A DNA stretch of 30,103 nucleotides from Promethearchaeota archaeon (GTDB taxonomy: Archaea > Asgardarchaeota > Lokiarchaeia > Sigyniarchaeales > SOKP01): positions 1 through 30,103 of the forward strand of contig JAHLWS010000059.1 in the NCBI GenBank assembly GCA_019057795.1, in the 5' to 3' direction. Under the pieces are notes generated by a model that saw nothing but the letters and a program-made list of their open reading frames with translations, made no database searches and was not told the origin of the DNA. The position numbers and the translations under genes are program-made. Shown piece after piece: positions 1,552 through 22,814 of this stretch (its first letter is position 1; each line of letters opens with the position of its first letter).

Positions 1552-3027
1552 TTAAATATATAATTTGAAATTATCTATAATTTCGTTATTTAAATTGAAA
1601 GTTTGAACATATGAACTATTTCCGGTAACCTCCCATACCATATAATGGTATAACGAAGCGGAAAAGTTTAATGGATGTCGAGTGCAACGTTCTGATAAAT
1701 CCGCACCGCCTCCACCTGAAACAATATGCGTCCAATTTAATATACTATCATGATATCTCTGATAATTATGCTCATGACCCGTTAAAGATACAGATACATT
1801 ATATTTCTTAATAGTTTCCATGATCATAGTTGTTATATTTGAGGAAGGTTGTCCACATCCATAATAAGGATGATGGTTTACCAGAAAAGCCCAATCATAA
1901 TTTTTTCTATAACTTTCAAGAGTTTCATTTATCCATGCTACTTGGCTAGGCTTCAAAGTCCCATACTGGCCAGTATTATACACAATAAACATACAATTTC
2001 CCACAGTAAACCAATAGTTCAATTCATCACCGGAACTATTATTATAAGTCCAATACTTATGCATATTTGCTGCCTCGTGAGGGCCCCCTTCTTCATTTCC
2101 TTGATAAAATTCGTGATTCCCACAAGCGATCATATATGCTCTATATGGCGCTAGGCATGAAATCTCTCGATGAAACTGATTCCAATTGTAATCAACTCCA
2201 CCACTTAACACAACGTCTCCAACATTTAGAGTAAAGTTAAAATCAAATTCTCCATCTGATCTAATCTGATTTTCGATTATTTTTTTTAAGATTGCGGTAT
2301 GAAAACAAGAATCTTTAAATGGACCTGCAAGTATGTGTGTATCATATCGATTATCGCCATATAAAATAAATCTTACTGTTTTAGTTTGAGAGGGATGTGC
2401 CATAGTTCTAAAATTATAAATTTTATTAATCCCATTTACTCTGTAAAAATATTTTGTATTAGGTTGTAAATTATTTAAAAAGATTGTATGATTTTTTTCG
2501 TTTTTACCCGTCCCAGCTGTGATTTTTGTTCCTAAAGAAACATTTATTAATCCATATTCTATATATGATTCAATGGGTTGATTAGATTCCCAAGAAATAC
2601 AAATGGATGTGGAAGTATTACCAACCCATGTTAAATATGGTGCTTTTTCTCGATCATTCGTTAATTCAACAAGGAAAGGTAATGAAGTTAAATACCAAGA
2701 AGAAAAAATAATATTAGTAATAATTAAGAAAACACATAAACCGCCTGAAAAGCCTTTTCCAGCGTAATCGAGGGCTTTAATTATGTTTTTCTTATATTCT
2801 GGAAATTTATATTTAAGAACTAAGCCAATTTGTAAACCAATTATTAGATGCCCTATAATTATTATATTTGCTCCCAATGTATAAGCATCATCAACACCAT
2901 ATTCTATAATCAACCCTATGACACTAAAACCAAAAATTTGCGTAGCGATTAGAAGAACGACCCAAAAGGAAGCCAAACCGGCGATTAATATCCCCAAATA
3001 AACCTTTATTTTATTAATTTTTCTCAT
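1552..3027 (-). CDS. Membrane-anchored metallophosphoesterase (purple acid phosphatase-like, FN3-type N domain plus calcineurin-like domain)
   Basis: Three N-terminal hydrophobic helices, then an FN3-like segment (ISWES...LNNLQPNTKYFYRV), then motifs YGDNR, GDVV, GNHE, NHHP and GHEHNYQR. ATG at 3027 preferred over TTG at 3036. Confidence 0.9.
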   Translation of the reverse strand: MRKINKIKVYLGILIAGLASFWVVLLIATQIFGFSVIGLIIEYGVDDAYTLGANIIIIGHLIIGLQIGLVLKYKFPEYKKNIIKALDYAGKGFSGGLCVFLIITNIIFSSWYLTSLPFLVELTNDREKAPYLTWVGNTSTSICISWESNQPIESYIEYGLINVSLGTKITAGTGKNEKNHTIFLNNLQPNTKYFYRVNGINKIYNFRTMAHPSQTKTVRFILYGDNRYDTHILAGPFKDSCFHTAILKKIIENQIRSDGEFDFNFTLNVGDVVLSGGVDYNWNQFHREISCLAPYRAYMIACGNHEFYQGNEEGGPHEAANMHKYWTYNNSSGDELNYWFTVGNCMFIVYNTGQYGTLKPSQVAWINETLESYRKNYDWAFLVNHHPYYGCGQPSSNITTMIMETIKKYNVSVSLTGHEHNYQRYHDSILNWTHIVSGGGGADLSERCTRHPLNFSASLYHYMVWEVTGNSSYVQTFNLNNEIIDNFKLYI

Positions 3028-3178
3028 TTTACTCAATTATTTTTTAATGGTCTTAGATTTAAATTTTTAATAATATTACTAAACAAATTATCCAACTCTC
3101 AAATTTATTCTTAACCGATTTCAAATTAAAGCTTACTCTTTTTTAAACATTAGGCTTATATAGTCAAAAAGTAAATTG

Positions 3179-3252: not shown

Positions 3253-3822
3253 ATGAGTAATAACGAGAGGAAAGAAGGAAATTTAGTTTTTCAAGGGCGA
3301 ACTGAATCGATATTTAAAGTGATTGTTATTGGCGATCCCGCCGTGGGGAAGACTAGCCTTCTTACAAAATTCGCTAAAAACCAATTTGAGGAAAAATATT
3401 TGCCAACCGTAGGTGTTAATATTGTCAAAGAACCCATTGAATTGAAGGAGATGAATGCCACAATTAACTTGATGTTTTGGGATGTGGCGGGACAACCGCA
3501 ATTTTATATGTTGCATCGTCCCTACTTTAACGGGGCGGATGGTATGCTTCTAGTATTTGATATAACGCGGTCAAGTACTTTCTCTAATATTAATAATTGG
3601 TACAATTCTGCCGTTAAATATGGGCTTAGTGGCGTCCCGCGAATCTTAATAGGCAATAAAGTAGATTTAAAAGACGAGCGTAAAATCATATTACCCATGG
3701 CAGAGCATCTAAGCGAAAAACTCAACGCGCCTTATTTCGAAACCTCAGCTCTTACTGGGGATACCGTAAAAGAAGTATTTCAAAAAATAGCAGAATTAGT
3801 TTTCAAGTACAAAGAGAATTAG
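3253..3822 (+). CDS. Rab-like Ras-superfamily small GTPase
   Basis: G1 GDPAVGKTS, G2 PTVG, G3 WDVAGQ, G4 NKVD, G5 ETSAL; no C-terminal Cys prenylation motif. Confidence 0.95.
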   Translation: MSNNERKEGNLVFQGRTESIFKVIVIGDPAVGKTSLLTKFAKNQFEEKYLPTVGVNIVKEPIELKEMNATINLMFWDVAGQPQFYMLHRPYFNGADGMLLVFDITRSSTFSNINNWYNSAVKYGLSGVPRILIGNKVDLKDERKIILPMAEHLSEKLNAPYFETSALTGDTVKEVFQKIAELVFKYKEN

Positions 3823-4000: not shown

Positions 4001-4570
4001 ATGAGTAAAAACAAGCGAGAAGAAGGAGGATTATTTTTTGAGGGGAGGACTGAATCAATATTTAAAGTAATTGTTATTGGTGACCCTTCTGTTGGGAAAA
4101 CCAGCCTTCTTACAAAATTCGCTAAAAATAAGTTTGAGGAGGTTTATTTGCCCACAGTTGGTGTTAATATTGTGAAAGAACCAATTGAATTGAAGGAATA
4201 TAACGCCACAATTAACTTAATGTTTTGGGAGGTCGCGGGACAACCACAGTTCTATATGTTACATCGCCCCTACTTTAATGGAGCTGATGGTATACTTCTA
4301 GTATTTGACATGACACGGTCTAGCACTTTTTCCAATGTTACTAATTGGTACGCTTCAGCTGAAAAATTTGGGCTCAGTAACATCCCTCGAATCTTAATAG
4401 GGAATAAAGTAGATTTAAAAAACGAGCGTAAAATTATATTGCCCATGGCAGAGCACCTAAGCGAAAAGCTCAACGCTCCTTATTACGAGACTTCAGCTCT
4501 AACTGGTGAAATCGTTAAAGAAGTATTCCACAAAATCGCGGAACTTGTCTACAAGAACAAAGTGAATTAA
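4001..4570 (+). CDS. Rab-like small GTPase, tandem paralog with G3 Asp-to-Glu change
   Basis: Same length (189 aa) and mostly identical to 3253..3822; GDPSVGKTS, WEVAGQ, NKVD, ETSAL. Confidence 0.95.
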   Translation: MSKNKREEGGLFFEGRTESIFKVIVIGDPSVGKTSLLTKFAKNKFEEVYLPTVGVNIVKEPIELKEYNATINLMFWEVAGQPQFYMLHRPYFNGADGILLVFDMTRSSTFSNVTNWYASAEKFGLSNIPRILIGNKVDLKNERKIILPMAEHLSEKLNAPYYETSALTGEIVKEVFHKIAELVYKNKVN

Positions 4571-8766: not shown

Positions 8767-9315
8767 TTATTTTTGTTTTTTTACCATACTTCTACTAATT
8801 ATTGCAAACAATTCCTCCACATTTTCACCGCTTTTTGAAGAACATTCGATATAACCAATAAAATTATTATCGTTGGCAAATTTAATGGCTTCTTCTTTGG
8901 GAACAGTTCTCATTCCTTCAAGATCGAGCTTGCTTCCAGCTAAAAGTATAGGTAATTTTTGATCGTGAATTTCGTTAGCTTCGTTAAAAACAGTTAACCA
9001 ATCGGTTAGATTTTTAAATGTGACATATCGAGTTATATCGTACATAAAAATAGTTCCTTTAGAGCCCATAACAGCGCCAGGTAAGAGAAATCTAAATTTC
9101 TTTTCTCCGGCAAAATCCCAAATTTGTAGAGAGATTTTTTTACCATCCAGCTCAAGTTTTTTTATATAGAAGTCCATTCCAATCGTAAGTTGATAGGTTT
9201 CTTTAAAAACCCCATTAAGAAAGCGGTGAGTCAAGGTAGTTTTTCCTACTCCCCCATCTCCGAAGATTGGGACCTTAAATTTTAGTGGATGGGGTTCAAA
9301 GTCTGAGTCCTTCAT
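8767..9315 (-). CDS. Rab-like small GTPase
   Basis: GDGGVGKT, TIGMDF (RabF1-like), SLQIWDFAGE, YDIT, SKLD, ECSSK; no prenylation motif. Confidence 0.92.
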   Translation of the reverse strand: MKDSDFEPHPLKFKVPIFGDGGVGKTTLTHRFLNGVFKETYQLTIGMDFYIKKLELDGKKISLQIWDFAGEKKFRFLLPGAVMGSKGTIFMYDITRYVTFKNLTDWLTVFNEANEIHDQKLPILLAGSKLDLEGMRTVPKEEAIKFANDNNFIGYIECSSKSGENVEELFAIISRSMVKKQK

Positions 9316-9495: not shown

Positions 9496-10902
9496 TTAGT
9501 TTTTATTTCTTGATTTTAAAATTTTTGCTCGTTCTCTCAAAATATCCCTAATTCTCTCTTTATCTTGGGTATACCAATTACGAGACAATGTCCACAAAAT
9601 TATACCAGGAATTACAAAAATAGTTATTATCACAGCACTAATTTTATAGTCCTGTCCGAAAATGGATATGAAAATACCTGCGATTAAAGGGCCCATACCA
9701 TAACCGATATTCTCTAAGAATTGATTCCATGAAACAATTTGGCCTTGAGCTTCTGGAAGATTTATTTCTTGTAGGATCGGTGGTTGATTGACCATGTATA
9801 AAGAAGATATGGCGTCAGAACTTAAAATTAAAACACCCATTACATATGTTATAGGAAGCGAAAAGAATAGGACGATGTTTGCCCCTTCTTCAGGCGTTAA
9901 AAAAGGCAATGGTACGAAAAACATTAAAACAAAAGTAATTGACCCTCCTACTAAAGAAAATATAATAAAACCAATCCTTCTGACATCATTTTTCTCTGCT
10001 AACTTATCTGACACTCGAGCGAGTAAAATTTGCCCTATAACGCGTCCAGTAACTCCAAAAATAACGATAAATAATCCTGTTGTTAGTGGAGAGAGATTAT
10101 GTGGAGGCGTTTGTAAATAGGGTAAAATAATCATATCTAAACTTCCCACAAATACACTGGAAAATATTCCTTCAATTAAAGCTGCAACATTAGTGCGAGA
10201 TAGCATAGTTCTACGCATTAATTCTTTATCCATATTAAAATCATATTCAATCGATCGATCATTAAGTACATCTCGTAATTCCTTGCTTTGAACACCCCTT
10301 TTTGGTTCCTTAACGTAAAAAAAAAATATTAAGCCCGAAATAAGAACCGCAATTCCTATACTTAAAAAATATAATCTCCAATACCCAAACTGCACTAAAG
10401 CACCAGATATTAGAAAACCAAGCATCATAAAGACGGATCCAAAAATACCAAAATATCCAAAGAATTTAGAGCGATGTTTTAATGGAACAATATCGTTAGA
10501 TAAGGAAACTATGGCGGGATAACTTCCTCCAGCAAAGAGAGCAAAAATTAGAACAAAAATAAAAAAATACCACCAGGTCTGTATTCCTTGACCGGCAATA
10601 GCGAAACCGAGCATAATCATGCAAAAACTTCTGGCAATAGATATTATTAATAAGATTTTTACTCGTGAATACTTATCAATAAGCCTACCAAGGAATAACC
10701 CTGAAAAAGAAGAAGTCCATAGAAGTGTGGTCATTAAAATTCCCATCTCTAGCGCGTGATAGGGTTCTCCTGGCCAAATTAGCGAAGACAGGGGTACCAT
10801 TAATATAATTATGCCCGCAAAGGCTATACTATTAAATCCATTGAGTAGATATACTGGCCAAATTAATTTATTATAAGATTGGTGAGAATCGTTTAATTCC
10901 AT
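9496..10902 (-). CDS. MFS transporter (spinster-like features)
   Basis: About 12 hydrophobic helices, motif A GRLIDKYSR, and WR..F...EPKRG. ATG at 10902 preferred over TTG at 10914. Confidence 0.88.
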   Translation of the reverse strand: MELNDSHQSYNKLIWPVYLLNGFNSIAFAGIIILMVPLSSLIWPGEPYHALEMGILMTTLLWTSSFSGLFLGRLIDKYSRVKILLIISIARSFCMIMLGFAIAGQGIQTWWYFFIFVLIFALFAGGSYPAIVSLSNDIVPLKHRSKFFGYFGIFGSVFMMLGFLISGALVQFGYWRLYFLSIGIAVLISGLIFFFYVKEPKRGVQSKELRDVLNDRSIEYDFNMDKELMRRTMLSRTNVAALIEGIFSSVFVGSLDMIILPYLQTPPHNLSPLTTGLFIVIFGVTGRVIGQILLARVSDKLAEKNDVRRIGFIIFSLVGGSITFVLMFFVPLPFLTPEEGANIVLFFSLPITYVMGVLILSSDAISSLYMVNQPPILQEINLPEAQGQIVSWNQFLENIGYGMGPLIAGIFISIFGQDYKISAVIITIFVIPGIILWTLSRNWYTQDKERIRDILRERAKILKSRNKN

Positions 10903-11012
10903 TTCTAACTTCAATTCTAAATTCTATAAATTCATAATTATATGAAATGGAAAATGAGAATTCAAATTTTAAATTGATGAAACATTACAGAATTTAAGAG
11001 TTTTTTATTTCA

Positions 11013-12464
11013 TTAAGGTTTTATTTGATGATCTGAGGGAGATGACATCCCTTCATTTGAATCTAAAATGTCAGCTCTTCCCTTTAATATCTCTCTTATG
11101 TTATAAGCATCAGAAGGAAACCATTTTATCGCAAAACCCCATAATATTACTCCGGGAAGAATACATATAGCAATTATTAAAATTGTGGATTGATAATTCA
11201 TGCTTGTCACAGCCAATAGGATTCCACTTAATAAGGGCCCCATACCTCTCCCTAAATTTTCCAAAAATTGATTCCATGAAACTATTTGACCTTGCGCTTC
11301 TGGCAAATTTATTTCTTGTAATAATGGACTTTGATTAACCATATATAGAGAAAAAATAGATCTTGATGCGAAGAACAAAGAACCCATTAACCAAATTATT
11401 GGGAGCGCCATTAAGAAAGGAACATCTTTCCCTTGCTCAATAGTCAAATGGGGCCATGGAATAAAGAAAAAAAGAATAAAAGTAAACAATCCTCCAATAA
11501 TAGCAACGATGATAATTGGTATTCTTATAATAGGTCGCTTTTTAGCTAATTTATCGCTTAACCTTGCTAGTAATAGCTGTCCAATTATTCCACCAGTTAG
11601 CCCAAAAGTAATCATGAAAATGCTAGTTGAAAATTCTGAAATATTGTGAGGTTCATTTTGGATAAGGTTAAGAATTAAGAAGTTAATAGAGCCCATTAGA
11701 ATCTGAGTAAATATTCCTTCAATTAAGGCAACTTTATTAGTTTTACTTAACATTGTTTTAAGCATAGTCTCCCGATTGATTTTAAAGTCGTAAATGACAT
11801 CTTTCTTTTTAAGGATATGTAACAATTCTTCTTGTTGCGCTCCTCTTTTAGGCTCATCGTTATGAATGGCAAAAATTAGGGCACAAATTAAAATACCTAA
11901 TCCAGTACCCCAAAAATACTGTCTCCACAGCCCGTTCTGCACTAAAAATGCTCCAATTAAAAATCCAAAAGTCATAGTAAGAGAGCGAACTATCTCATAA
12001 AAACCAAAAAAACGCGAACGAGAAGCTTTAGGAACGATATCGTTAGACAAAGATATTACGGCGGGCCAGCTTAATCCCGCAAACATCCCAAAAATACTTA
12101 TAAATACTAAGAAATATATCCAAGAGGACGAACCGCCTCCCTCCAATGCAAATCCAAGCATTACTATCGCAAGCCCCCTAAATATTGAAATAATAACGAT
12201 TATCTTTTTACGAGAGTATTTATCAATTAAGTGTCCAAATAATAATCCTGAGATCGAAGCAGACCATGATAGCACTGCAATTAATATTCCCATTTCTAAA
12301 GCGTGAGTTGGCTCAGTTGGCCACATAATTCTTGATATTGGTACGATAAGAAAGATAATCCCGCCCCAGGCAATACTTTGGAACCCATTAAGAAAATAAA
12401 TAGGCCATAATATGCGATTGTAGCTAATAGAATCTGCTGAATTATTAGAATTGATATTTTCCAT
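11013..12464 (-). CDS. MFS transporter, tandem paralog of 9496..10902
   Basis: GHLIDKYSR and EPKRG; shares the block QEINLPEAQGQIVSWNQFLEN with its neighbour. Confidence 0.88.
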   Translation of the reverse strand: MENINSNNSADSISYNRILWPIYFLNGFQSIAWGGIIFLIVPISRIMWPTEPTHALEMGILIAVLSWSASISGLLFGHLIDKYSRKKIIVIISIFRGLAIVMLGFALEGGGSSSWIYFLVFISIFGMFAGLSWPAVISLSNDIVPKASRSRFFGFYEIVRSLTMTFGFLIGAFLVQNGLWRQYFWGTGLGILICALIFAIHNDEPKRGAQQEELLHILKKKDVIYDFKINRETMLKTMLSKTNKVALIEGIFTQILMGSINFLILNLIQNEPHNISEFSTSIFMITFGLTGGIIGQLLLARLSDKLAKKRPIIRIPIIIVAIIGGLFTFILFFFIPWPHLTIEQGKDVPFLMALPIIWLMGSLFFASRSIFSLYMVNQSPLLQEINLPEAQGQIVSWNQFLENLGRGMGPLLSGILLAVTSMNYQSTILIIAICILPGVILWGFAIKWFPSDAYNIREILKGRADILDSNEGMSSPSDHQIKP

Positions 12465-12561
12465 AAGAACTGAGCTCTAATAATAATATCCCTTATATGG
12501 TTTCTAAAATGAGCTTTCTAATATTAATGTAATGAAATATAAAATCCTAAATTTTAATTTG

Positions 12562-13755
12562 TTAATTAGTTTTAATTTTGTTTTTAGAAAGTAGATATAT
12601 AACTAAGCTTAACAACGATAATAGGGATAAAAAGAAAAATGCTAAGTTTGCATCTACCGCAGCGATAAAACCACAAAGTATTGGCGCAAAAAAGAATCCA
12701 ATTCCAATCGCAGTTTCAAAATAAATGCTGTATTTTGAAGTGTTGTTAGCTATATTCCGAAATAGTATTAGTTTGAAAGCAAGGGTATAATAAAAAGAAT
12801 TAAAAATTCCAAACGCACAAAAGAGAATTGCAAAAATAAATAAGTCTTGATTTAATCCCATCAAGAAAAGGGAAAATATTATAATTAAATTGGATATAGG
12901 AATCATTTTTTTGGTGGTTTTTATTTTAAAGTCCATAGATTTTGAAATTGAAATCGTTTGAGTACTCATTCTTAAAAAGAAAAATAGATAATTAGTGAAG
13001 AGAGCGAAATTTAGTATTTCAGATTTAATCGGATAAATTAATCCCATACCTCCAATCAAAAAACCATATATTCCAATCATAAAAAGCGGCAGATATAAAG
13101 GAAAAGAAATGTGCTCTCTTTGAGGAATTACTTTTACTCCTTCGTCAATTGGAACGATAATCTCTTTGTCCAAACTATGAGATGGTTCTTGAATAATTAA
13201 AGCCATACTAAAGCCGAAAATAGCAAAAAATAACGCAAACAAAAACATAATCTGAATATTTTCAATATAAAACAAAATAAAGAAACCTAAAGCGTAGCTA
13301 AAAATTCCTCCAAAATTCCAAGCTAAACTATACTTTTTCATTAATTTATCCTTTAAGGAGTTATTTTTACGATATTCTTCTGAATTTGATATCGCCGAAA
13401 GTGCGCCCATTAAAATTGGCCAAAACAATCCTAAAAATGTTCCATCTAATATTAACAAGAAATAAATTAACAATGGATCTTTTGAAAACTGCAAGATTAC
13501 TTGAACAAATAAGAAGCCTAATGATGATATGATAATCGTAGGTTTTACGCCAAGCTTTTTCTGAACATTTCTAAAGATTAAAGGCGAAAATAAGTATGCC
13601 ATGGCTGTTCCAGAAATAATGAATCCAATAATTTCTGGATTTAATCCTATCTCAATTAAATAAAGTGGAATAGCTAAACCAATCGCCACACCTGTCGCAA
13701 CGCGCGTAAATGCTAAAATAAATATTGGAAATACTCTGTAATTATCTGCTTTCAT
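12562..13755 (-). CDS. MFS-type transporter (divergent)
   Basis: 397 aa with about 12 hydrophobic segments and a central hydrophilic loop. Confidence 0.75.
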   Translation of the reverse strand: MKADNYRVFPIFILAFTRVATGVAIGLAIPLYLIEIGLNPEIIGFIISGTAMAYLFSPLIFRNVQKKLGVKPTIIISSLGFLFVQVILQFSKDPLLIYFLLILDGTFLGLFWPILMGALSAISNSEEYRKNNSLKDKLMKKYSLAWNFGGIFSYALGFFILFYIENIQIMFLFALFFAIFGFSMALIIQEPSHSLDKEIIVPIDEGVKVIPQREHISFPLYLPLFMIGIYGFLIGGMGLIYPIKSEILNFALFTNYLFFFLRMSTQTISISKSMDFKIKTTKKMIPISNLIIIFSLFLMGLNQDLFIFAILFCAFGIFNSFYYTLAFKLILFRNIANNTSKYSIYFETAIGIGFFFAPILCGFIAAVDANLAFFFLSLLSLLSLVIYLLSKNKIKTN

Positions 13756-13982: not shown

Positions 13983-14393
13983 TTAGTCACTTTCTAAAAA
14001 GCTTTGCATTTCGGTTAATTTTAATAAAAATTTTGGAGCTTTCATTTTTATTTTACGGGCAACAACTTTCTTTATGATATCGCTTTGCGACAGTTTTCCC
14101 TCACCAATCTCATCAAATAGTGCTTTTGTCGTTTTCATCATGCCATCCCAACCAAGTTTTTCCTCTGTTAAGTCCTTCTTATCTTTGTTTTCAATTCCCT
14201 CTACGGAAACTGTTCCTTTGTCAACAGTTACTAAAGCGGCATATTCACCATCTTTTGGATTTAATAAAATCTTAAAGGATTCTTTAGCGAATTTCTCTTT
14301 AAATTTATCAATTGAATTTAATGGCATATAAAGATTAAAAACGCCCTCTGGATAAGTTCCTTCTTTAACCTTACCAAGTTTATTTTCTGACAT
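13983..14393 (-). CDS. SCP2 (sterol carrier protein 2)-like lipid-binding protein
   Basis: Pattern ALVTVDKGTVSVE...WDGMMKTT..LF.EI..G.LS....VVARKIKMK...LLKL resembles the SCP2 fold. ATG at 14393 preferred. Confidence 0.65.
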   Translation of the reverse strand: MSENKLGKVKEGTYPEGVFNLYMPLNSIDKFKEKFAKESFKILLNPKDGEYAALVTVDKGTVSVEGIENKDKKDLTEEKLGWDGMMKTTKALFDEIGEGKLSQSDIIKKVVARKIKMKAPKFLLKLTEMQSFLESD

Positions 14394-14834
14394 ATTTGTC
14401 AATTTTTTTTCTGTATTATTAATAATATATAAAGTTATTTCAACTCCATGAAATATAAATGTTTTAGTGTCTTAATAAAAAGAAAGTTACTTTACCTTAA
14501 TATGAAGCAAGAATATTAGTTTTTATTTCACTTGAGTTTGGACTTTCTTTTTAGAAATAGTTTTTTATATATCTTATTTGTTAGTGGAATAGTTTGAAGA
14601 AAATCAGCGTGACGATACTTATACCCTTGAAGTTTAATCTGTTCTTGCATCTTAACTATCTCAATATTATATATATTTCCTAGTTTACCATGTAAAGTTC
14701 GCATATTAAAGAATTAATATTAAAAAGAATTTTTTCAGTATGATTAGGTTTTTATATAGAAATTCATTTAAGTAAACTTAATTCATCTATAGAATAGAAA
14801 AGTTATTAAAATTTTTGCCCTTTTTTAATAAATA

Positions 14835-15617
14835 ATGCTTGCTGACAATCAGTTAATTAAACGGCTTCAAAATGGAGCGATTCGGGGAATTATCCTCGAT
14901 TTTGATGGAACTATTCTCGATATCAGAAAAACACTTAAAGACGCAATAGAAGAAGTTTACGAGGAAAAACACATTTCAGCGGACATTGAAAGCACAATGC
15001 AAGAAATAGGGGCTTTAATGGAAACAATTCAAGGGCTTCCGCTTCCAAAAATCGTATTGGAGTCTTTCAATTTATTTAAATACATAGAATCGTTCCAACC
15101 GTTAACATATTTAAAAAAACTACGAATAGCAACGAAAATTTTCACGCGTTATCTAGAGTACGCGAAAGATGCATCGTTTTATCCAGAAGCAACTGAATTT
15201 ATTAATAAATATAAAAAAACTTATGATTTATTTATTGTTTCTCACAACCAGACTAAGAATATAATTCCTCATTTAGAAGAAAAAAAAGTAAAAAGCTTTT
15301 TTAAAGGAATTTTTGGAGCAGATCTACTTCCCGCTTTAAAACCCGACCCAAACGCGTTAAACCCTGTTTTTGAAAGTTATAAATCCTGCAAATTGAAGGA
15401 ATTTGTAATGATTGGAGATATGCCTTCAGATATTGAAGCAGGAAGAGAAGCTGGAGTTTGGACGATTGGTGTTGCGAGCGGAGTAAGTAAAAGAGAGATG
15501 TTGGCGAAATTTAACCCAAGCTTATTAATTGACTCGTTAGATGAATTAATTAGAATAATTGAAAATAAAAATTTATCAAATTCAAATACTCAAAATAAGA
15601 TTGAGATAAAATCCTAG
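14835..15617 (+). CDS. HAD-superfamily phosphatase (subfamily IA, C1 cap)
   Basis: Motif I DFDGT, motif II VSH, motif III KPDP, motif IV GDMPSD. Confidence 0.9.
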   Translation: MLADNQLIKRLQNGAIRGIILDFDGTILDIRKTLKDAIEEVYEEKHISADIESTMQEIGALMETIQGLPLPKIVLESFNLFKYIESFQPLTYLKKLRIATKIFTRYLEYAKDASFYPEATEFINKYKKTYDLFIVSHNQTKNIIPHLEEKKVKSFFKGIFGADLLPALKPDPNALNPVFESYKSCKLKEFVMIGDMPSDIEAGREAGVWTIGVASGVSKREMLAKFNPSLLIDSLDELIRIIENKNLSNSNTQNKIEIKS

Positions 15618-15621
15618 GAGG

Positions 15622-17307
15622 ATGAAATTAATGGTGCTTAAAGAAGAATATAAAACTTCAGCAGATACGAGTATTATAAAAACTACTGAAGAAAAAGAAA
15701 AGGAAGATTTAGAGTTTGGTAAACGACACCAGAACTCGATGTATAAAATATTAAAATATAATCCAATCGATCCATTAAACGACCTCTATCGTCGAGCTAT
15801 TGACCAATTGAACATTGGAGAAATAGAGGGAAAACTCCAATATTGGACGGCATTTGTTTATATAAAGTTTTTTGCCCGATTGCTCTGGAATTTTAAAGTA
15901 GAATATCCTTTAGGGAATTTGTTTCCGGAATACGGGGCAGGCATTCTTGTAGGAAGCCACGAGTCTCATTTGGACCCATTCTTCTACGGTTCTGCTTGTC
16001 AAAGAAGAATCCAATACATGAGTAAATTGGATAATTTTAAAACTCCTTTAGTTAAAACGCTTTTTACAAATTTAGGGGCCTTTAAAATAGATCGAAATAA
16101 TCCTGAGCAAGGCTGGGATAGGGCTAAAGAGATTATCAGAGGTGGTGAATGGGTAGGGATTTTCCCTGAAAGTACCCGGTCTAGGGAGGAAACTGGGTGG
16201 GAACTAGGAGAGTTTAAAACGGGGGCAGTTCGACTCGCGATTGAAATGGGTGTGCCGATTGTTCCAATGGCAGTGATTGGGTCTAGAAATGCGTTACCAA
16301 AAGGTAATTTGGTCATGAAACCAACTCAAGTCAAAGTACGCGTAGGTGATCCGATTTACTACGATAAGTATAATATTGACGATGTTTCTTACGAAGAAAT
16401 TAAGAGACTAACCAATGAATTAAGACAGATTGTTCTTGATTTAAGAGAATACGTCATTGTGGACACAAGGAAAAAGAAAAAGGAAGAAGAGCTATCGATT
16501 GGTTCCCCTGAGGATGCTGAAAAACCCAAAAAGTCAAATTCAGCATTGAGATATTTAAAAGATATAGGAATGGGCACATTACAACTTGTTGATGACATCT
16601 GGTACTCCTTCATAAAATCGTTAGAAGTATTAGGACTACGCGAATATTTAGCATCTCCATCGCAAGCTATCTATGGGTGGGCAGTCCATAATTTAGGCAA
16701 CTTAATGATACCATATAAAGCAATTGACTTTGAAAAATATATTCCTGATACCGGGGCAGCAGTTTTTTGTACCAACCACAATTCTGAGTGGGACGTAATT
16801 ATGACTGCGACTTGTATGACATACCATAAAAAACGAATTCTTTTTCAAATGGCGAAACAGGGTTTGTTTAAATTCCCAATCGTTAACGCTTGGGTTAGAA
16901 CCCACCACGCGTTTCCCTTAAAAAGGGGACAACACGACATTGATTCGTATAATTACGCTAAACATCTTCTTGATAACGGAGAATTGGTTATGATGTACCC
17001 CGAAGGAACTACCAATCCAGGCGGTGGTGAACTCCTAGAGGGCCACACAGGTGCTATGCGATTAGCTATTGAAAAGCAAGTACCCATTTTATTAGTAGGA
17101 ATTACGGGTACAGAAAATACGTACCCAAAACACGCTAAGATGTTGAACTTCTATAGGGGATCTATATTAAAAGCAGGACCCCCATTCATGGAACATAAAA
17201 AACATTGGGGCAAACCAATGCCAGATTACGATGAATTAAAGCGTTTAACGGATAATATGATGGCTCAAATTAAAGATTTACTCTTATATGATAGCCCAGA
17301 TGCCTAA
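15622..17307 (+). CDS. Glycerolipid acyltransferase with two tandem PlsC/LPLAT domains
   Basis: Domain 1: HESHLD (HX4D), YMSK, IDR, FPESTR, FKTGA, PIVP. Domain 2: NHNSEWD, QMAK, PLKR, YPEGT, HTGA. GGAGG at 15617-15621 suggests the real start is ATG 15631. Confidence 0.92.
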   Translation: MKLMVLKEEYKTSADTSIIKTTEEKEKEDLEFGKRHQNSMYKILKYNPIDPLNDLYRRAIDQLNIGEIEGKLQYWTAFVYIKFFARLLWNFKVEYPLGNLFPEYGAGILVGSHESHLDPFFYGSACQRRIQYMSKLDNFKTPLVKTLFTNLGAFKIDRNNPEQGWDRAKEIIRGGEWVGIFPESTRSREETGWELGEFKTGAVRLAIEMGVPIVPMAVIGSRNALPKGNLVMKPTQVKVRVGDPIYYDKYNIDDVSYEEIKRLTNELRQIVLDLREYVIVDTRKKKKEEELSIGSPEDAEKPKKSNSALRYLKDIGMGTLQLVDDIWYSFIKSLEVLGLREYLASPSQAIYGWAVHNLGNLMIPYKAIDFEKYIPDTGAAVFCTNHNSEWDVIMTATCMTYHKKRILFQMAKQGLFKFPIVNAWVRTHHAFPLKRGQHDIDSYNYAKHLLDNGELVMMYPEGTTNPGGGELLEGHTGAMRLAIEKQVPILLVGITGTENTYPKHAKMLNFYRGSILKAGPPFMEHKKHWGKPMPDYDELKRLTDNMMAQIKDLLLYDSPDA

Positions 17308-17319
17308 ACGAGAATTAAA

Positions 17320-18396
17320 GTGGAATTAATGGAAGAACCTCAACAAACAGAGAAGAAACAGATCAAAGTTGGGATACCAAGGGCACTTCATTTTTATAGA
17401 TATTTTCCATTTTGGAAAAAATTACTGGAAGAATTAGACGCTGAAATCGTTATAAGTCCCCTTACAAACAAGAAAATCGTTGAGGAAGGCGTAACACACG
17501 GATTCGGGGAGTTGTGTATTCCAGTCAAGATATATTACGGTCAACTCTTAAGGTTAGTAAAAGATCATCCCGATTTAGACTTTGTTTTTGTGCCTAGGTA
17601 TGTTTCGGAAGTAAAAGATTCGTACTTTTGCCCTAAATTTTTGTCTTTACCAGATGTGATTAAAATTCTACCTGACATTCCAAGGATTTTAAATTTTGAA
17701 GTAAACGTTAAAGAGTTTCCGATATCGACAGCTGCCGTTGAACTCGGAAAGCAACTTGGAAAAAACCAAAACAAAGCCTTAAATGCTTATAGAGAAGCGC
17801 AGAAATATTTCGACGAATATCACGACTTTATTCGAGAGGGCGCCTCAGTTAACCACGCTTTAAGGTTAGTCGAAAGAAATCGACCTTTTACCTTACCAAA
17901 AAAAAAAAGCGAAGGAGATATACGATTTTTGCTATTAGGGCATGGTTATAACATATTTGATACTTTTATTAATCTCGATTTTCAAAAAAAATTGAAAGAC
18001 CAAGGAGTTAATCATATTACCATTGAAAACCTGCCAGAATCTATTTTCAAGACGCCCGTTATAGTGAACCCAAGAGGGGCAAAATTACAAAATTATTGGA
18101 GACACGAAGAGGAAATTATGCAGGCTATTCGATTTTTCCTTACGAAGGGACGCGACGAAATAGATGGCGTAATATTCTTAATCAGCTTCGCATGCGGACC
18201 AGATAGCCTTATTTCTGAACTAATCATGAGAGACATGAAAGTTGTAGGACTTCCCTTTTTAGAAATTATTATGGACGAGCATAGCGGGGAAGCCGGATTG
18301 CTCACAAGAGTAGAAAGTTTTGTCGAAATGATCCGAAGAAAGAAAAAGGGATTGACAGTCGGGAGAAGGGATAAATTAACGATTAAATCTGCTTAA
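17320..18396 (+). CDS. DUF2229 / acyl-CoA dehydratase activase-related Fe-S subunit (PlsA C-terminal-half-like)
   Basis: VGIPRAL..Y..FPFW, ELCIPVK, FCPKF, LLGHGYN, SFACGPD, DEHSGEAG..TRVESF. Alternative start ATG 17329. Confidence 0.85.
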   Translation: MELMEEPQQTEKKQIKVGIPRALHFYRYFPFWKKLLEELDAEIVISPLTNKKIVEEGVTHGFGELCIPVKIYYGQLLRLVKDHPDLDFVFVPRYVSEVKDSYFCPKFLSLPDVIKILPDIPRILNFEVNVKEFPISTAAVELGKQLGKNQNKALNAYREAQKYFDEYHDFIREGASVNHALRLVERNRPFTLPKKKSEGDIRFLLLGHGYNIFDTFINLDFQKKLKDQGVNHITIENLPESIFKTPVIVNPRGAKLQNYWRHEEEIMQAIRFFLTKGRDEIDGVIFLISFACGPDSLISELIMRDMKVVGLPFLEIIMDEHSGEAGLLTRVESFVEMIRRKKKGLTVGRRDKLTIKSA

Positions 18397-19223: not shown

Positions 19224-20414
19224 ATGATAATTACCTTTCCCAATATGGGGCCCAACTGGGTAGCTTTTAAGACTCTATTTACAAGCCTTGGTCTAGATGT
19301 AATTATTCCAGATCCAACGAATCGGGAAGCAATTAAAATCGGAGTCAAGTATTCCCCTGAATTTGTGTGCTTTCCGTTTAAAGCGACTATTGGAGATTTT
19401 GTGAATGCTATAAAAAAGGGAGCAGATACGCTGATCATGGCAATAGATTGCGGACCGTGTAGATTTGGCTTTTACGCGAGCGTCCAAGAACGCATTTTAA
19501 AAGATATGGGTTATAAAGACATCACTGTAATTCCTTTAGACCAAGCAGATCTCTTAGATTTTAAATGGGTCAAAACTCTTCAAGAAGTTAGTGGTCGAAA
19601 AGATTTGTTTATGTATTCAAAATTCGTTAAGGCTGTTATTTTTTTCCTAAAAAAAGCTAAGCTGTTAAACGATATTCAAACTGCCGAAGGTATCTTCCGA
19701 GCTTACGAGCGCAATCAGGGAGATACGACGGATTTAATTAAAAACTTATTGATTAAGCTTGATCAAGCTAATTCGCTCTCAGAATTGAAAAAATTCAAAA
19801 GCGTTATTAAGCAAGATTTTAGCAATTTAGATATTGATAAGACCCGAAATCCTCTACGGGTTGGTGTTTCGGGAGAGATTCACATTAGTTTGGAACCCTA
19901 TGTAAATTTAGATATCCGTAGAAAGCTGGGTGAGATGAACATTGAAGTACACCAGAGCCTGAGCTTATACGATTGGGTTGTCCATAAATTTCATTTAAAT
20001 TATCACAGGAAGTGGTTAGAGCACCTTTCGCGACCTTACGTTCCGATGGATATTGGAGGAGAATGTCAATGGGTGTTAGGCGAATATATAGACAAAGCTA
20101 AAGCGGGTTTCGACGGCTTTTGCCACATTTACCCATTTTTATGCATGCCGGAAGTGACGGCTCGAACGATTATAACTAACAAACTCAAGGGAGTCTACGA
20201 CCTCCCCATTATTTACTTCTCTTTCGACGAGCAGAGCGGATTGGCGGGCTTCAGAACGAGGTTAGAAGCATTCTCTGATTTAATGTATGGTCGTAGGAAC
20301 AAAGAAATTGAAAATAACGCCAAATTCGTAGCAAATGGTAATAAAAAGATTTATCCGCATTATGGCGGTTTATTTTATAATGAATGCTTTCAATTAATTC
20401 AAAATTCGGTTTAA
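19224..20414 (+). CDS. 2-hydroxyacyl-CoA dehydratase D-component-like Fe-S subunit (PlsR-like, 'CoA protein activase')
   Basis: FVCFPFK, CGPCRFGFY, VGVSGEI, YPFLCMPE, FDEQSG.AG..TRLEAF. Confidence 0.85.
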   Translation: MIITFPNMGPNWVAFKTLFTSLGLDVIIPDPTNREAIKIGVKYSPEFVCFPFKATIGDFVNAIKKGADTLIMAIDCGPCRFGFYASVQERILKDMGYKDITVIPLDQADLLDFKWVKTLQEVSGRKDLFMYSKFVKAVIFFLKKAKLLNDIQTAEGIFRAYERNQGDTTDLIKNLLIKLDQANSLSELKKFKSVIKQDFSNLDIDKTRNPLRVGVSGEIHISLEPYVNLDIRRKLGEMNIEVHQSLSLYDWVVHKFHLNYHRKWLEHLSRPYVPMDIGGECQWVLGEYIDKAKAGFDGFCHIYPFLCMPEVTARTIITNKLKGVYDLPIIYFSFDEQSGLAGFRTRLEAFSDLMYGRRNKEIENNAKFVANGNKKIYPHYGGLFYNECFQLIQNSV

Positions 20415-20432: not shown

Positions 20433-21458
20433 TTGGTAGAAGTTACTGAAAAAGTTGCTGAAGAGGGGAAAAAAAAAGATGCTTTCCTTGGTATTGACAT
20501 TGGAAGCGTGAGTTGCAAATTTGTTCTAATGGATACAGATGGAAATTTACTTACTAGTGTATTTTTACGAAATAGAGGTTCTCCCATCGACTCAGCCAAG
20601 GCAGGAATGGCAGAGTTACGCTATAACATAGAACAAAGCGAAAATTTAGGCGACTATGAGATACGTTGTTGTGGTACCACAGGTTCGGCACGGTATTTAA
20701 CAAAAGCAATCGTAGGTGCCGATCTCGCTAAAACTGAGATAATAGCCCACGCTGTTGCGGCACAGACCATCTATCCCGATGTAAGAACGATATTAGAAAT
20801 TGGCGGTCAAGATTCGAAAATTATCATTCTACGGGACGGAATAATTGTAGATTTTGCGATGAATTCCGTATGCGCTGCGGGAACGGGTTCATTTCTCGAT
20901 CATCAAGCAGCGAGACTTGGAATTGCTATAGAGGAGTTCGGCGCTTACGCTATAAAATCAAAAAATCCTGTGAGTATTGCGGGAAGATGTACTGTATTCG
21001 CAGAATCCGATATGATTCACAAGCAAAACGCGGGTTACACTAAAGAGGATATTATTGCAGGTTTATGCGATTCACTTGTTCGCAACTATATGAACAACGT
21101 AGGTAAGGGTAAAGACTTAGAAGAACCTATTGTGTTTCAAGGTGGCGTTTCTTACAACGAAGGGATCATTGAAGCATTTGAAAGACATTTAGGTTGCAAA
21201 GTAATTGTTCCTGAATTTAATGTCCTAATGGGGGCTATAGGAATGGCAATTTTAGTTAGAGATTTCTATTTAGAGCACGAACATCAAACTGTATTTCGAG
21301 GACTCGAAGTAGCTGAAATTGAATTCACGACCTCAGCGTTTAACTGCGGAGACTGTCCTAATAATTGCGAAATAGTCCAAGTAAAGATGCCCCAAGAGGG
21401 AAATAAGATTATAGCGCGTTGGGGCTCTCGTTGTGGTAAATGGGACCAAGTAGATTAA
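20433..21458 (+). CDS. ATP-dependent [4Fe-4S] activase (HgdC/BadF-BadG/BcrA-BcrD ASKHA family) with C-terminal Cys motif
   Basis: GIDIGSVSCK, TTGSAR, EIIAH, EIGGQDSK, MNSVCAAGTGSF, RCTVFAESD, and tail CGDCPNNC...GSRC. GGTGA RBS lies upstream of the TTG start. Confidence 0.92.
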   Translation: MVEVTEKVAEEGKKKDAFLGIDIGSVSCKFVLMDTDGNLLTSVFLRNRGSPIDSAKAGMAELRYNIEQSENLGDYEIRCCGTTGSARYLTKAIVGADLAKTEIIAHAVAAQTIYPDVRTILEIGGQDSKIIILRDGIIVDFAMNSVCAAGTGSFLDHQAARLGIAIEEFGAYAIKSKNPVSIAGRCTVFAESDMIHKQNAGYTKEDIIAGLCDSLVRNYMNNVGKGKDLEEPIVFQGGVSYNEGIIEAFERHLGCKVIVPEFNVLMGAIGMAILVRDFYLEHEHQTVFRGLEVAEIEFTTSAFNCGDCPNNCEIVQVKMPQEGNKIIARWGSRCGKWDQVD

Positions 21459-21618: not shown

Positions 21619-21813
21619 ATGACAGAATTTTTTAAGCAATTAAAGGACTTGGGCGAGGGATTTCTCGAGTCCTTGCAACATAAAACAAAATTATCGACAA
21701 TATTTGATATTTATTTAGAAAAAGTAATCCCATCATTTGTTTCCGAAAAAGAGTTAAAGGAATATTACGAGAGACGGATGGAGGAAGTTAATAATTTCAT
21801 AGACAAACTATAA
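21619..21813 (+). CDS. Small helical hypothetical protein
   Basis: 64-aa ATG ORF, 14 bp upstream of the next gene, with amphipathic pattern. Confidence 0.6.
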   Translation: MTEFFKQLKDLGEGFLESLQHKTKLSTIFDIYLEKVIPSFVSEKELKEYYERRMEEVNNFIDKL

Positions 21814-21827
21814 ACGAGGGAAAAAAC

Positions 21828-22517
21828 ATGGTTGAAACATCTTCCGAGGAGAATGAAACGAAAGGAAAAGATAAGATGCTTAGTAAGAACCTTATGCAAG
21901 ATATTTTTTACGCAGTTACCAAAGGTTTAGGGAACCTAGGTTTAACGGCATTCGCAGACTTACAAATCCTGGGAAGAGAAAACATTCCTATTATAGGAAA
22001 AGCGATATTAACTACGATAAGCGACAACGCGTTAAGAGACATGGCGATTATAAGTCAAGTTTCTGGACGAAGAATTCATTTTATGGTTCATCATAAACTA
22101 ATGAAGAATCAAATGTATGGTCCCGTTCTTAAATCGTTAGGCATGTTTCGCAGTACCCTCGATAAAGACGATACCGTCCCTATAGATAAGGTGTTCCACT
22201 ATCTTAACGAAGTTGGGGATCTTGTAGCCATGACGCCAGAATCAAAACTTACCCCCGAAATTCAAGTGAAAGCAATGGCGGGAATCATTAAATTTGCGGT
22301 TGCTGGAGAGGCTCCTATAATTCCCATAGCAATATATACGGAAAAAGCGAAAATATTAGGTATGTTTAAATCACAGGGGTTAAGAGTAAAAATCGGGGCC
22401 CCGCTTAAGGTAGAAAAACGATTATCTCGACCAAAATATCGAGATGAGAGATACGAACTCGCTGAGGATATATTAAGAATTATTGATTCCCTTAAACCAC
22501 AACCCGATATTGAATAA
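21828..22517 (+). CDS. Degenerate PlsC/LPLAT-fold protein lacking the catalytic His
   Basis: GRENIP..GKAIL, RRIHFM, MTPES (for FPEG), PIIPIAI, VKIGAP. The HX4D position reads TISDNALRD. Confidence 0.75.
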   Translation: MVETSSEENETKGKDKMLSKNLMQDIFYAVTKGLGNLGLTAFADLQILGRENIPIIGKAILTTISDNALRDMAIISQVSGRRIHFMVHHKLMKNQMYGPVLKSLGMFRSTLDKDDTVPIDKVFHYLNEVGDLVAMTPESKLTPEIQVKAMAGIIKFAVAGEAPIIPIAIYTEKAKILGMFKSQGLRVKIGAPLKVEKRLSRPKYRDERYELAEDILRIIDSLKPQPDIE

Positions 22518-22550: not shown

Positions 22551-22814
22551 ATGGAAAATAGCCAAAGTTCAGAAATGAACGATTTTCAGATAAATTTAAC
22601 CAGCTTAAGCGAAGAATTAGAGCAAAGAAAAGAGGATCTTATAAGAGAATTAAATACCCCTGGAAAAATTGAGAACTCGTCTGAACCAAATGCGGAATTA
22701 GGCGATGTTATAGGAGATATCTTCTATAAATCGATGAAGAACTTCTTTGAAGTAGGGTTTAAACTTGCCGAAAGTTTAAATCTTGAGTTTAGCACAGAAA
22801 ATCAGGACGAGTAA
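22551..22814 (+). CDS. Small acidic hypothetical protein
   Basis: 87-aa ORF with GAGGT RBS; coiled-coil-like N half and DIFY..K motif. Confidence 0.7.
   Translation: MENSQSSEMNDFQINLTSLSEELEQRKEDLIRELNTPGKIENSSEPNAELGDVIGDIFYKSMKNFFEVGFKLAESLNLEFSTENQDE

Follow-up and report, generated by a model that had tools for sequence, protein, structure and literature searches.

Homologs of the bacterial acyltransferases PlsC and PlsY have been reported and discussed in Lokiarchaeota since 2017–2019 (PMC6431249, PMC6737245, PMC9385802), and the role of such Asgard homologs has been called unresolved (PMC9385802, PMC6431249, PMC13400652). PlsY and PlsC of bacteria work with either enantiomer of glycerophosphate (PMC13400652), and PlsM of mycobacteria is a PlsC-like enzyme that acylates glycerol-3-phosphate (G3P) as well as lysophosphatidic acid (LPA; PMC10593935). 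Ger, expressed in anaerobic E. coli, makes 1-alkyl glycerol ethers from esters, and Ger homologs have likewise been reported in Lokiarchaeota (PMC13159169, PMC9702350). Here, a gene of a Promethearchaeota archaeon is described that encodes two PlsC-type acyltransferases in one polypeptide (P0001, 561 amino acids; an open reading frame (ORF) at 15622–17307 on the + strand). It lies in a DNA stretch of 30,103 nucleotides with a G+C content of about 32%, referred to below as the window, which is contig 59 (JAHLWS010000059.1) of assembly GCA_019057795.1 (4.95 Mb, marker completeness 100%, contamination 7.5%). The ATG at 15622 stands 4 nt past the stop codon of the upstream gene, which encodes a HAD hydrolase; a TAGGAGG sequence upstream of P0001 overlaps that stop codon, and the TAA of P0001 is followed after 12 nt by the start of the next gene, which encodes a protein with DUF2229 and HGD-D domains.

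P0001 contains two matches to PF01553, and each half scores above the gathering cut-off of 23 bits on its own: the N half at residues 101–218 (87.1 bits, E = 1.2e-24) and the C half at residues ~371–493 (81.5 bits, E = 6.3e-23). The observation of a double acyltransferase is thus confirmed and lies far beyond chance. The top NCBIfam family for both halves is TIGR00530 (1-acylglycerol-3-phosphate acyltransferase domain, EC 2.3.1.51), the cut-off of which (102.95 bits) is missed by the single halves (87.8 bits for the N half and 66 for the C half) and passed by the whole protein (150.9 bits) only as the sum of both. Membership of P0001 in the PF01553 superfamily is firm, and neither half fits the full definition of PlsC proper. 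The preliminary description of this locus had proposed one chain with two intact active sites, and the motifs that it quoted were all found in their places: HESHLD (H113–D118) and HNSEWD (H386–D391) for the HX4D block, FPESTR (181–186) and YPEGTT (459–464) for block III, and RKKKKEEE (283–290) between the halves. In an alignment (A1) of 31 fused orthologs with 59–92% identity, the catalytic blocks of both halves are invariant in 31 of 31 sequences: H113 and D118 versus H386 and D391 in block I, F154 and R158 versus F431 and R435 in block II, E183, T185 and R186 versus E461, G462, T463 and T464 in block III, and P212 and P215 versus P488 in block IV. Also invariant are K135 and K412, the equivalents of K105 in PlsC of Thermotoga maritima (TmPlsC). 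Mean pairwise identity is 0.76 in the N core, 0.74 in the C core, 0.59 in the linker and 0.42 in the first 34 residues. Ser184 in FPESTR is peculiar to P0001, most orthologs having the canonical FPEGTR.

The AlphaFold2 (AF2) model of P0001 (predicted local distance difference test (pLDDT) 74, predicted template modelling score (pTM) 0.70) twice repeats the arrangement of two long helices leading into an alpha/beta core, with residues 280–306 disordered. The N half consists of a helical lead-in (residues 35–89, 15724–15888 (+); helices 35–45, 49–63 and 66–89, the last of them hydrophobic) and a catalytic core (residues 90–280, 15889–16461 (+)) that carries H113-x4-D118, F154..R158, F181-PESTR-186, P212/P215 and K135. 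A linker with pLDDT below 50 (residues 281–306, 16462–16539 (+)) connects it to the two-helix lead-in of the C half (residues 307–362, 16540–16707 (+); helices 307–336 and 340–362, with the invariant residues D324, D325, W327 and Y328) and the second core (residues 363–556, 16708–17289 (+)), which carries H386-x4-D391, F431..R435, Y459-PEGTT-464, P488, K412 and W424. The N unit (model residues 44–302) superimposes on TmPlsC (5KYM; chain residues 18–247) with Z 19.9 and a root-mean-square deviation (rmsd) of 4.0 over 219 aligned residues, the lead-in matching the helices at the N terminus of TmPlsC. When the C unit is folded on its own (pLDDT 83, pTM 0.80), it matches the same structure with Z 19.3 and rmsd 4.0 over 214 of 232 residues, both N-terminal helices included. 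Each half was thereby shown to be a complete TmPlsC-like unit of lead-in helices and alpha/beta core with an intact His-Asp dyad.

TmPlsC is the nearest structure and sequence for both halves, with profile E-values of 3e-17 and 9e-19. Structures of glycerol-3-phosphate acyltransferases (GPATs) score Z 15–17.5 against either half (17.5 and 16.1 for the C unit, which gives Z 12.5 with PatA), that is about 2 to 4.5 below PlsC. A gap of this size does not discriminate, and the attempt to decide between a GPAT and a lysophosphatidic acid acyltransferase (LPAAT) from the fold was dropped. Among PDB profiles, human GPAT1 was matched by the N half only (E = 2.5e-4), and no PlsB-named family was found among the NCBIfam matches of P0001 at E up to 0.01. 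In the N half, K135 aligns with K105 of TmPlsC and E183–R186 with its EGTR; in the C half, K412, P419 and W424 stand opposite K105, P112 and W116, and T464 stands opposite R159. No window of 19 residues in P0001 resembles a transmembrane helix, the top-scoring ones corresponding to the buried strand of block IV. An integral membrane protein is thereby ruled out, and P0001, like TmPlsC, would be at most a monotopic membrane protein.

The charged linker of the preliminary description is present as RKKKKEEE, and its poly-K/E stretch varies among orthologs. What it did not include is LSIGSP (residues 291–296, 16492–16509), which directly follows and is almost invariant among the fused orthologs within an otherwise variable, disordered segment. 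An LSIG consensus also occurs in the C-terminal tail of the split N-type proteins described below, and LSIGSP may be a docking or processing motif.

The two halves share 30% identity across 185 residues, and each has stand-alone Asgard relatives that resemble it alone, helical lead-in included (e.g., P0130/P0272 and P0132–P0139 for the N half; P0136, P0140 and P0159 for the C half). A maximum-likelihood tree of 98 acyltransferase domains places all N units, fused and split, in one clade (SH-aLRT 99) and all C units in another (SH-aLRT 96), and in both clades the split forms fall outside the main group of fused forms. The relation between the N and C clades, as well as their ties to bacterial sequences, is left unplaced by this tree. 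A recent internal tandem duplication is ruled out by the low identity, the separate clades and the stand-alone orthologs of each half; judged from these sequence relationships, P0001 arose by fusion of the genes for two paralogs that diverged long ago, here termed N type and C type. The split arrangement is preserved in related genomes. On the L013 contig, genes for a HAD protein, an N type (322 aa), a C type (253 aa), a DUF2229/HGD-D protein, a second DUF2229 protein, a BcrAD_BadFG protein, a 64-aa protein and a third acyltransferase-like protein follow one another, and L012 has the same core with the HAD gene absent. The sister family is represented by the closed genome G213 (4.36 Mb), in which the same three genes are preceded by those for an N type of 352 aa and a C type of 269 aa. 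The fused gene of L007–L011 occupies the same place in the operon as the split pairs. The C type of L013 contains exactly HNSEWD and YPEGTT, and HX4D is likewise kept by the C types of L012 and P0136, which are also split forms. The preliminary description had set P0001 against bacteria, which use separate enzymes for the two acylations; this framing leaves out of account that the host is an archaeon and that its relatives encode both halves as separate adjacent genes.

A word-indexed protein search with P0001 returned 225 matches, which include more than 200 full-length homologs from Asgard archaea. Among the best 120, nearly all have 550–562 residues (with a few shorter fragments), almost every one covers the whole query, identities range from 59 to 92%, and all source names are Asgard (metagenome-assembled genomes of Lokiarchaeota/Promethearchaeota, Hermod-, Heimdall- and Odinarchaeota). 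When 301 genomes of the phylum were sampled, the fused frame (~550–580 residues, full query) was present in 60 of the 68 sampled genomes of the window's own family, weaker single-domain matches were found in the sister family (7 of 7 genomes), and two further families of the class yielded frames of 876–879 residues. Only 20 proteins of a library clustered at 50% identity scored below 1e-30, which indicates that the P0001 family is tight and isolated.

The N and C units are not equivalent. Block III reads FPEGTRS throughout the N clade, Ser184 of P0001 excepted, whereas throughout the C clade EGT is followed by T, I or L and then by N (EGTT in P0001), so that the block III Arg is absent. In a review that draws on Robertson et al. 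2017 and Yamashita et al. 2007, residue R159 of TmPlsC is described as positioned for binding of the LPA phosphate, and replacement of the block III Arg by Ala or Lys as strongly inhibiting mammalian LPAAT alpha (PMC6688108). The presence of this Arg in the N clade and its absence from the C clade suggest that the N unit would act on a phosphomonoester lysolipid and the C unit on a different acceptor. Enzymes of the LPCAT (lysophosphatidylcholine acyltransferase) type, which act on lysolipids that bear a head group, are not known to have the block III Arg either. As judged from its sequence, the C unit can persist as a pseudoenzyme in some split lineages: in the C type of G213 (L023:3382-4188) and in P0159 the catalytic His is replaced by Phe and block III is degenerate, and both proteins are still clear members of the C clade beside an intact N type. 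In the fused orthologs, the C unit is intact in 31 of 31.

Complex models of the natural split pair of L013 predicted that the two units, where separate, probably bind each other. The interface score (ipSAE) was 0.64 (0.69, 0.64 and 0.53 in the individual runs), and the best control reached 0.00. This mark is reached by 58 of 80 solved complexes and by 2 of 110 mismatched pairs, a calibration that is rough here because own alignments (A2 and A3) were used. At least 66% of the contacts were shared between runs, with partner pLDDT of at least 80. A solved PlsC heterodimer is not known, so that a score owed to a memorized structure seems unlikely. In P0001 numbering, the confident contacts involve residues 67–87 and 99–105 of the N unit and residues 318–337 of the C unit, together with 413–417, 431–434 and 440–448 around block II. 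The predicted interface includes the invariant, non-catalytic residues W75, K82, R86, D325 and Y328; D324 and W327, likewise invariant, sit in the same C-side helix, which has the motif DDxWY..K.L.

The neighborhood of P0001 is conserved together with it, and the acyltransferase pair is always accompanied by a split DUF2229/HGD-D and activase-ATPase module. The first gene of the operon encodes an HAD-IA family hydrolase (14835–15617 (+); PF13419/PF00702) and holds the same position in L007–L011 and L013; only generic HAD-IA or phosphoglycolate-phosphatase-like matches were obtained, far under the equivalog cut-offs, and assignment to a specific HAD subfamily was rejected. Downstream of P0001 follow the DUF2229 and HGD-D protein (17320–18396 (+)), whose domains are of the PlsA/Ger type, a second DUF2229-related protein (19224–20414 (+)), conserved in L009, L010, L012, L013 and L023, and an ATPase of the BcrAD_BadFG or acyl-CoA dehydratase activase type (20433–21458 (+); PF01869, and TIGR00241 at 197 bits, above its cut-off), all three recognized by profile matches. 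The DUF2229 gene (~360 aa) lies immediately next to the acyltransferase gene, on one contig and one strand with it, in at least 50 genomes, in most of them at a gap of 50–130 bp; in split operons it stands one gene further, and beside triple acyltransferase fusions it lies 2–4 kb off. A conserved small ORF of 64 aa (21619–21813 (+)), whose counterparts in L009, L010 and L013 share its length and position, precedes a third acyltransferase-fold protein without the catalytic His, AT3 (21828–22517 (+)). AT3 matches PF01553 with 26 bits, has TTSDNALRD where HX4D would stand, shows a degenerate block III, and forms a clade of its own with the third domain of two triple fusions, P0131 and P0273 (SH-aLRT 99). 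By its sequence it is probably a conserved pseudoenzyme subunit; counterparts were found at L009:13240-13932, L010:13473-14165 and L013:7995-8843. Together with the 64-aa ORF, an ORF of 87 aa (22551–22814 (+)) flanks AT3, and its helix DIFYKSMKNF resembles the interface helix of the C unit. A role in docking would account for the recurrence of this helix. Pfam and NCBIfam scans gave no match for the 64-aa and 87-aa ORFs or for an ORF of 139 aa at 13983–14402.

Several further genes of the window were recorded. Three genes for major facilitator superfamily (MFS) transporters (9496–13755 (−)) are divergent from the operon, and MFS genes also stand beside it in L007, L009 and L010; in two of these, L007 and L010, the operon has an AMP-binding (acyl-CoA synthetase-like) gene no more than ~7 kb away. 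Ras/Rab-like small GTPase genes are typical of Asgard genomes, and the window contains two such ORFs (PF00071) at 3253–3822 (+) and 8767–9315 (−), as well as an ORF at 4001–4570 (+) of the same length as the first. A WD40 beta-propeller protein is encoded at 2–1279 and a purple-acid-phosphatase-like protein at 1552–3036.

The rest of the genome was surveyed for partners in lipid synthesis. Its only PF01553 domains are the two of P0001 and that of AT3, and its only DUF2229 genes are those of the P0001 operon; the control search for DUF2229 was positive in T. maritima and L. lactis. Profile searches of the genome found neither PlsX nor a PP-binding or acyl carrier protein (ACP) domain, and the absence of an ACP makes acyl-CoA the likely donor. 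The C-terminal domain of GpsA (PF07479) was also not found in the genome; it was used in place of PF01210, which gave only weak Rossmann-type matches and was discarded as a GpsA marker. GGGPS, the enzyme of geranylgeranylglyceryl phosphate (GGGP) synthesis, is present, and an acceptor based on glycerol-1-phosphate (G1P) or of the GGGP type is conceivable for P0001. Two tandem PlsY genes (PF02660; ~400 aa each) are encoded on contig C75 of the same genome, G000 (C75:18445-21050; L004:56-1261 and 1459-2661). PlsY proteins are usually about half as long; the C-terminal halves of these two gave no match in Pfam, and a BD-FAE/alpha-beta-hydrolase esterase gene adjoins the tandem.

Taken together, P0001 is best read as a fused pairing of N-type and C-type PlsC-fold acyltransferases at the membrane surface, which would supply the acylating activity of a conserved lipid operon in Asgard archaea and feed a PlsA/Ger-like module; a probability of roughly one half is assigned to this reading. 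Two intact, non-identical units under purifying selection are most naturally read as carrying out two different acyl transfers. The N half would be a lyso-phosphatidate-type acyltransferase that moves an acyl group, probably from acyl-CoA, onto a 1-radyl-glycerophosphate, the free phosphate of which would be held by the block II Arg, Arg186 and Lys135. The C half would perform a second, different acylation on an acceptor that is independent of the block III Arg contact, for which a dephosphorylated or head-group-bearing lysolipid or the other hydroxyl is a candidate. Both halves together would make an ester lipid for conversion by the neighboring reductase-like module, and the HAD enzyme would take off a phosphate at some step of the pathway. 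Of the two proposals in the preliminary description, the two-specificity enzyme fits better, though as a member of a conserved lipid operon and not as a free-standing remodelling enzyme.

A number of observations weigh against this interpretation. The roles of all members of the P0001 family are predicted from genes and models, the AF2 fold and complex are predicted models, and the missing block III Arg is an argument about specificity that is drawn from a motif. The C types of G213 and P0159 without the catalytic His weaken the idea that two acylations are obligatory in general. Between the split DUF2229 module and PlsA or Ger, the resemblance is at the domain level only, and other Asgard families carry fused DUF2229 proteins of ~1400 aa without a P0001-like acyltransferase. 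The latter were seen in families f7 and f29 (27 of 28 and 11 of 11 sampled genomes, e.g., G213:C1:2592249 and 4119612); their occurrence without the acyltransferase indicates that the acyltransferase link is specific to the split DUF2229 form, and that fused and split forms represent two distinct architectures of this enzyme family in Asgard archaea. Moreover, the published lipids of the cultured Lokiarchaeon were only archaeal isoprenoid ones, and ester lipids were possibly missed (PMC13400652). A broader proposal, that members of this Lokiarchaeial family natively make fatty-acyl glycerolipids on G1P or G3P, possibly also on the lyso-type archaeal intermediate GGGP, by means of a dedicated two-headed acyltransferase, and that these are then turned into n-alkyl ether or mixed lipids by the neighboring split PlsA/Ger-like reductase, is tentative and, as it stands, rather unlikely.

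Among the alternatives, the one that survives best is that of the preliminary description, in which one half would be a GPAT and the other an LPAAT, so that glycerophosphate and two acyl donors would be turned by one chain into phosphatidic acid or the corresponding G1P enantiomer. It is consistent with two intact and different active sites, with PF01553 domains that the genome encodes only in this operon and with the absence of PlsX, which leaves the two PlsY proteins without their usual source of acyl-phosphate. The PlsC-like PlsM is known to acylate G3P and LPA (PMC10593935), and the Z-score of the C-half fold against GPATs is little under that against PlsC (17.5 versus 19.3). Nevertheless, no mark of a GPAT was found on either half: both are nearest to TmPlsC, and PlsB-type families are missing from the NCBIfam matches. 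The full phosphate-binding set is present in the N half only, and the pair could not be used in this way in those lineages in which split operons hold a dead C type. Because the C unit lacks the block III Arg and the genome has two PlsY genes of its own, which could serve for sn-1 acylation, this activity, though possible, is not favored and is considered unlikely.

A remodelling enzyme similar to that of the Lands cycle is a second alternative, in which both halves would re-acylate lysolipids obtained by uptake or from lipases, outside de novo synthesis, and would differ in their preference for acceptor or acyl chain. The EGTTN of the C half without the LPA-specific Arg, the MFS genes adjoining the operon here and in L007, L009 and L010, the AMP-binding gene within ~7 kb in L007 and L010, and the lack of an ACP and of an obvious G3P synthesis in the organism are all compatible with it. 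The tight, conserved operon with a reductase-like module and an HAD phosphatase, however, looks like a pathway and not like repair; the N half carries every LPAAT feature, and ester lysolipids in these archaea are without supporting evidence, so that remodelling appears quite unlikely. Finally, it is very unlikely that only the N half works and that the C half, in the manner of AT3, serves chiefly for structure or for presenting the substrate, with catalytic residues that are kept but unneeded: the loss of His from the C type of G213 and P0159 in operons beside an intact N type, the retention of AT3 as a dead paralog and an N/C interface predicted to run through the lead-in helices and not the active sites would agree with it, but H386, D391, R435, E461, G462 and P488 are invariant in 31 of 31 fused orthologs, the C core is conserved like the N core (0.74 versus 0.76), and HX4D persists among split C types (L012, L013, P0136).

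The fused acyltransferase bears on an open problem of eukaryogenesis, the origin of bacterial-type fatty-acyl membranes in a cell of archaeal descent. P0001 is a concrete candidate for an enzyme by which archaea closely related to eukaryotes would make fatty-acid lipids. What has been called PlsC consists in this family of two acyltransferases that are conserved together and not equivalent; here they are fused, and where they are split they are predicted to bind each other. Tables that record a single-domain PlsC as present or absent, and single-gene trees, have treated this two-paralog system as one gene. As the pair is tied to genes for a phosphatase and for an iron-sulfur module resembling ester reductases in one operon, a defined gene set is available for testing. 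A literature search (Asgard, PlsC, plsA, lipidome) of a limited paper collection returned no description of the two-domain form, of the N and C types as paralogs, of their split and fused occurrence or of the tie to the operon.

Comparison with known systems places P0001 closest to TmPlsC in its fold with a two-helix lead-in, HX4D, block II Arg, block IV Pro, the K105 equivalent and the lack of transmembrane segments, whereas it differs in having two units per chain, a Thr at the R159 position of the C unit and an archaeal host without ACP. PlsM is likewise a small, acyl-CoA-dependent protein of PlsC fold without transmembrane segments and demonstrates that G3P and LPA can both serve as acceptors for an enzyme of this fold (PMC10593935); it is, however, a single-domain enzyme with measured activity, compared with P0001 by description only. 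The Asgard split pairs of L012, L013 and G213/L023 have domains from the orthologous clades in the same order upstream of the DUF2229/HGD-D, DUF2229 and BcrAD_BadFG genes, but they consist of two genes instead of one, and the C type lacks the catalytic His in G213 and P0159. Asgard triple fusions (P0131 and P0273, 858–872 aa; Helarchaeota-type and others) are also multi-domain PF01553 proteins whose third domain clusters with AT3, and in G240 and G297 a DUF2229 gene lies a few kb off; their first two domains, however, fall outside the N and C clades, and some of their catalytic motifs are degenerate. Bacterial tandem PF01553 proteins (P0147, P0196 and P0263, 444–470 aa, and P0199 of Patescibacteria) also have two acyltransferase domains per chain, but all four lie outside the N and C clades. 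The domains of P0147, P0196 and P0263 are mutually closest, as expected of independent and more recent duplications, and kinship of P0001 to the bacterial tandem acyltransferases is ruled out by the separate duplications in the tree. The neighboring genes, in turn, resemble the PlsA/PlsR plasmalogen synthase and Ger of anaerobic bacteria in carrying DUF2229, HGD-D and BcrAD_BadFG domains (PMC9702350, PMC13159169), Ger being the T. maritima enzyme that the DUF2229 control search detects in that genome. They differ from these enzymes in that three polypeptides share the domains between them, with only one ATPase domain, and in that they are tied to acyltransferase genes.

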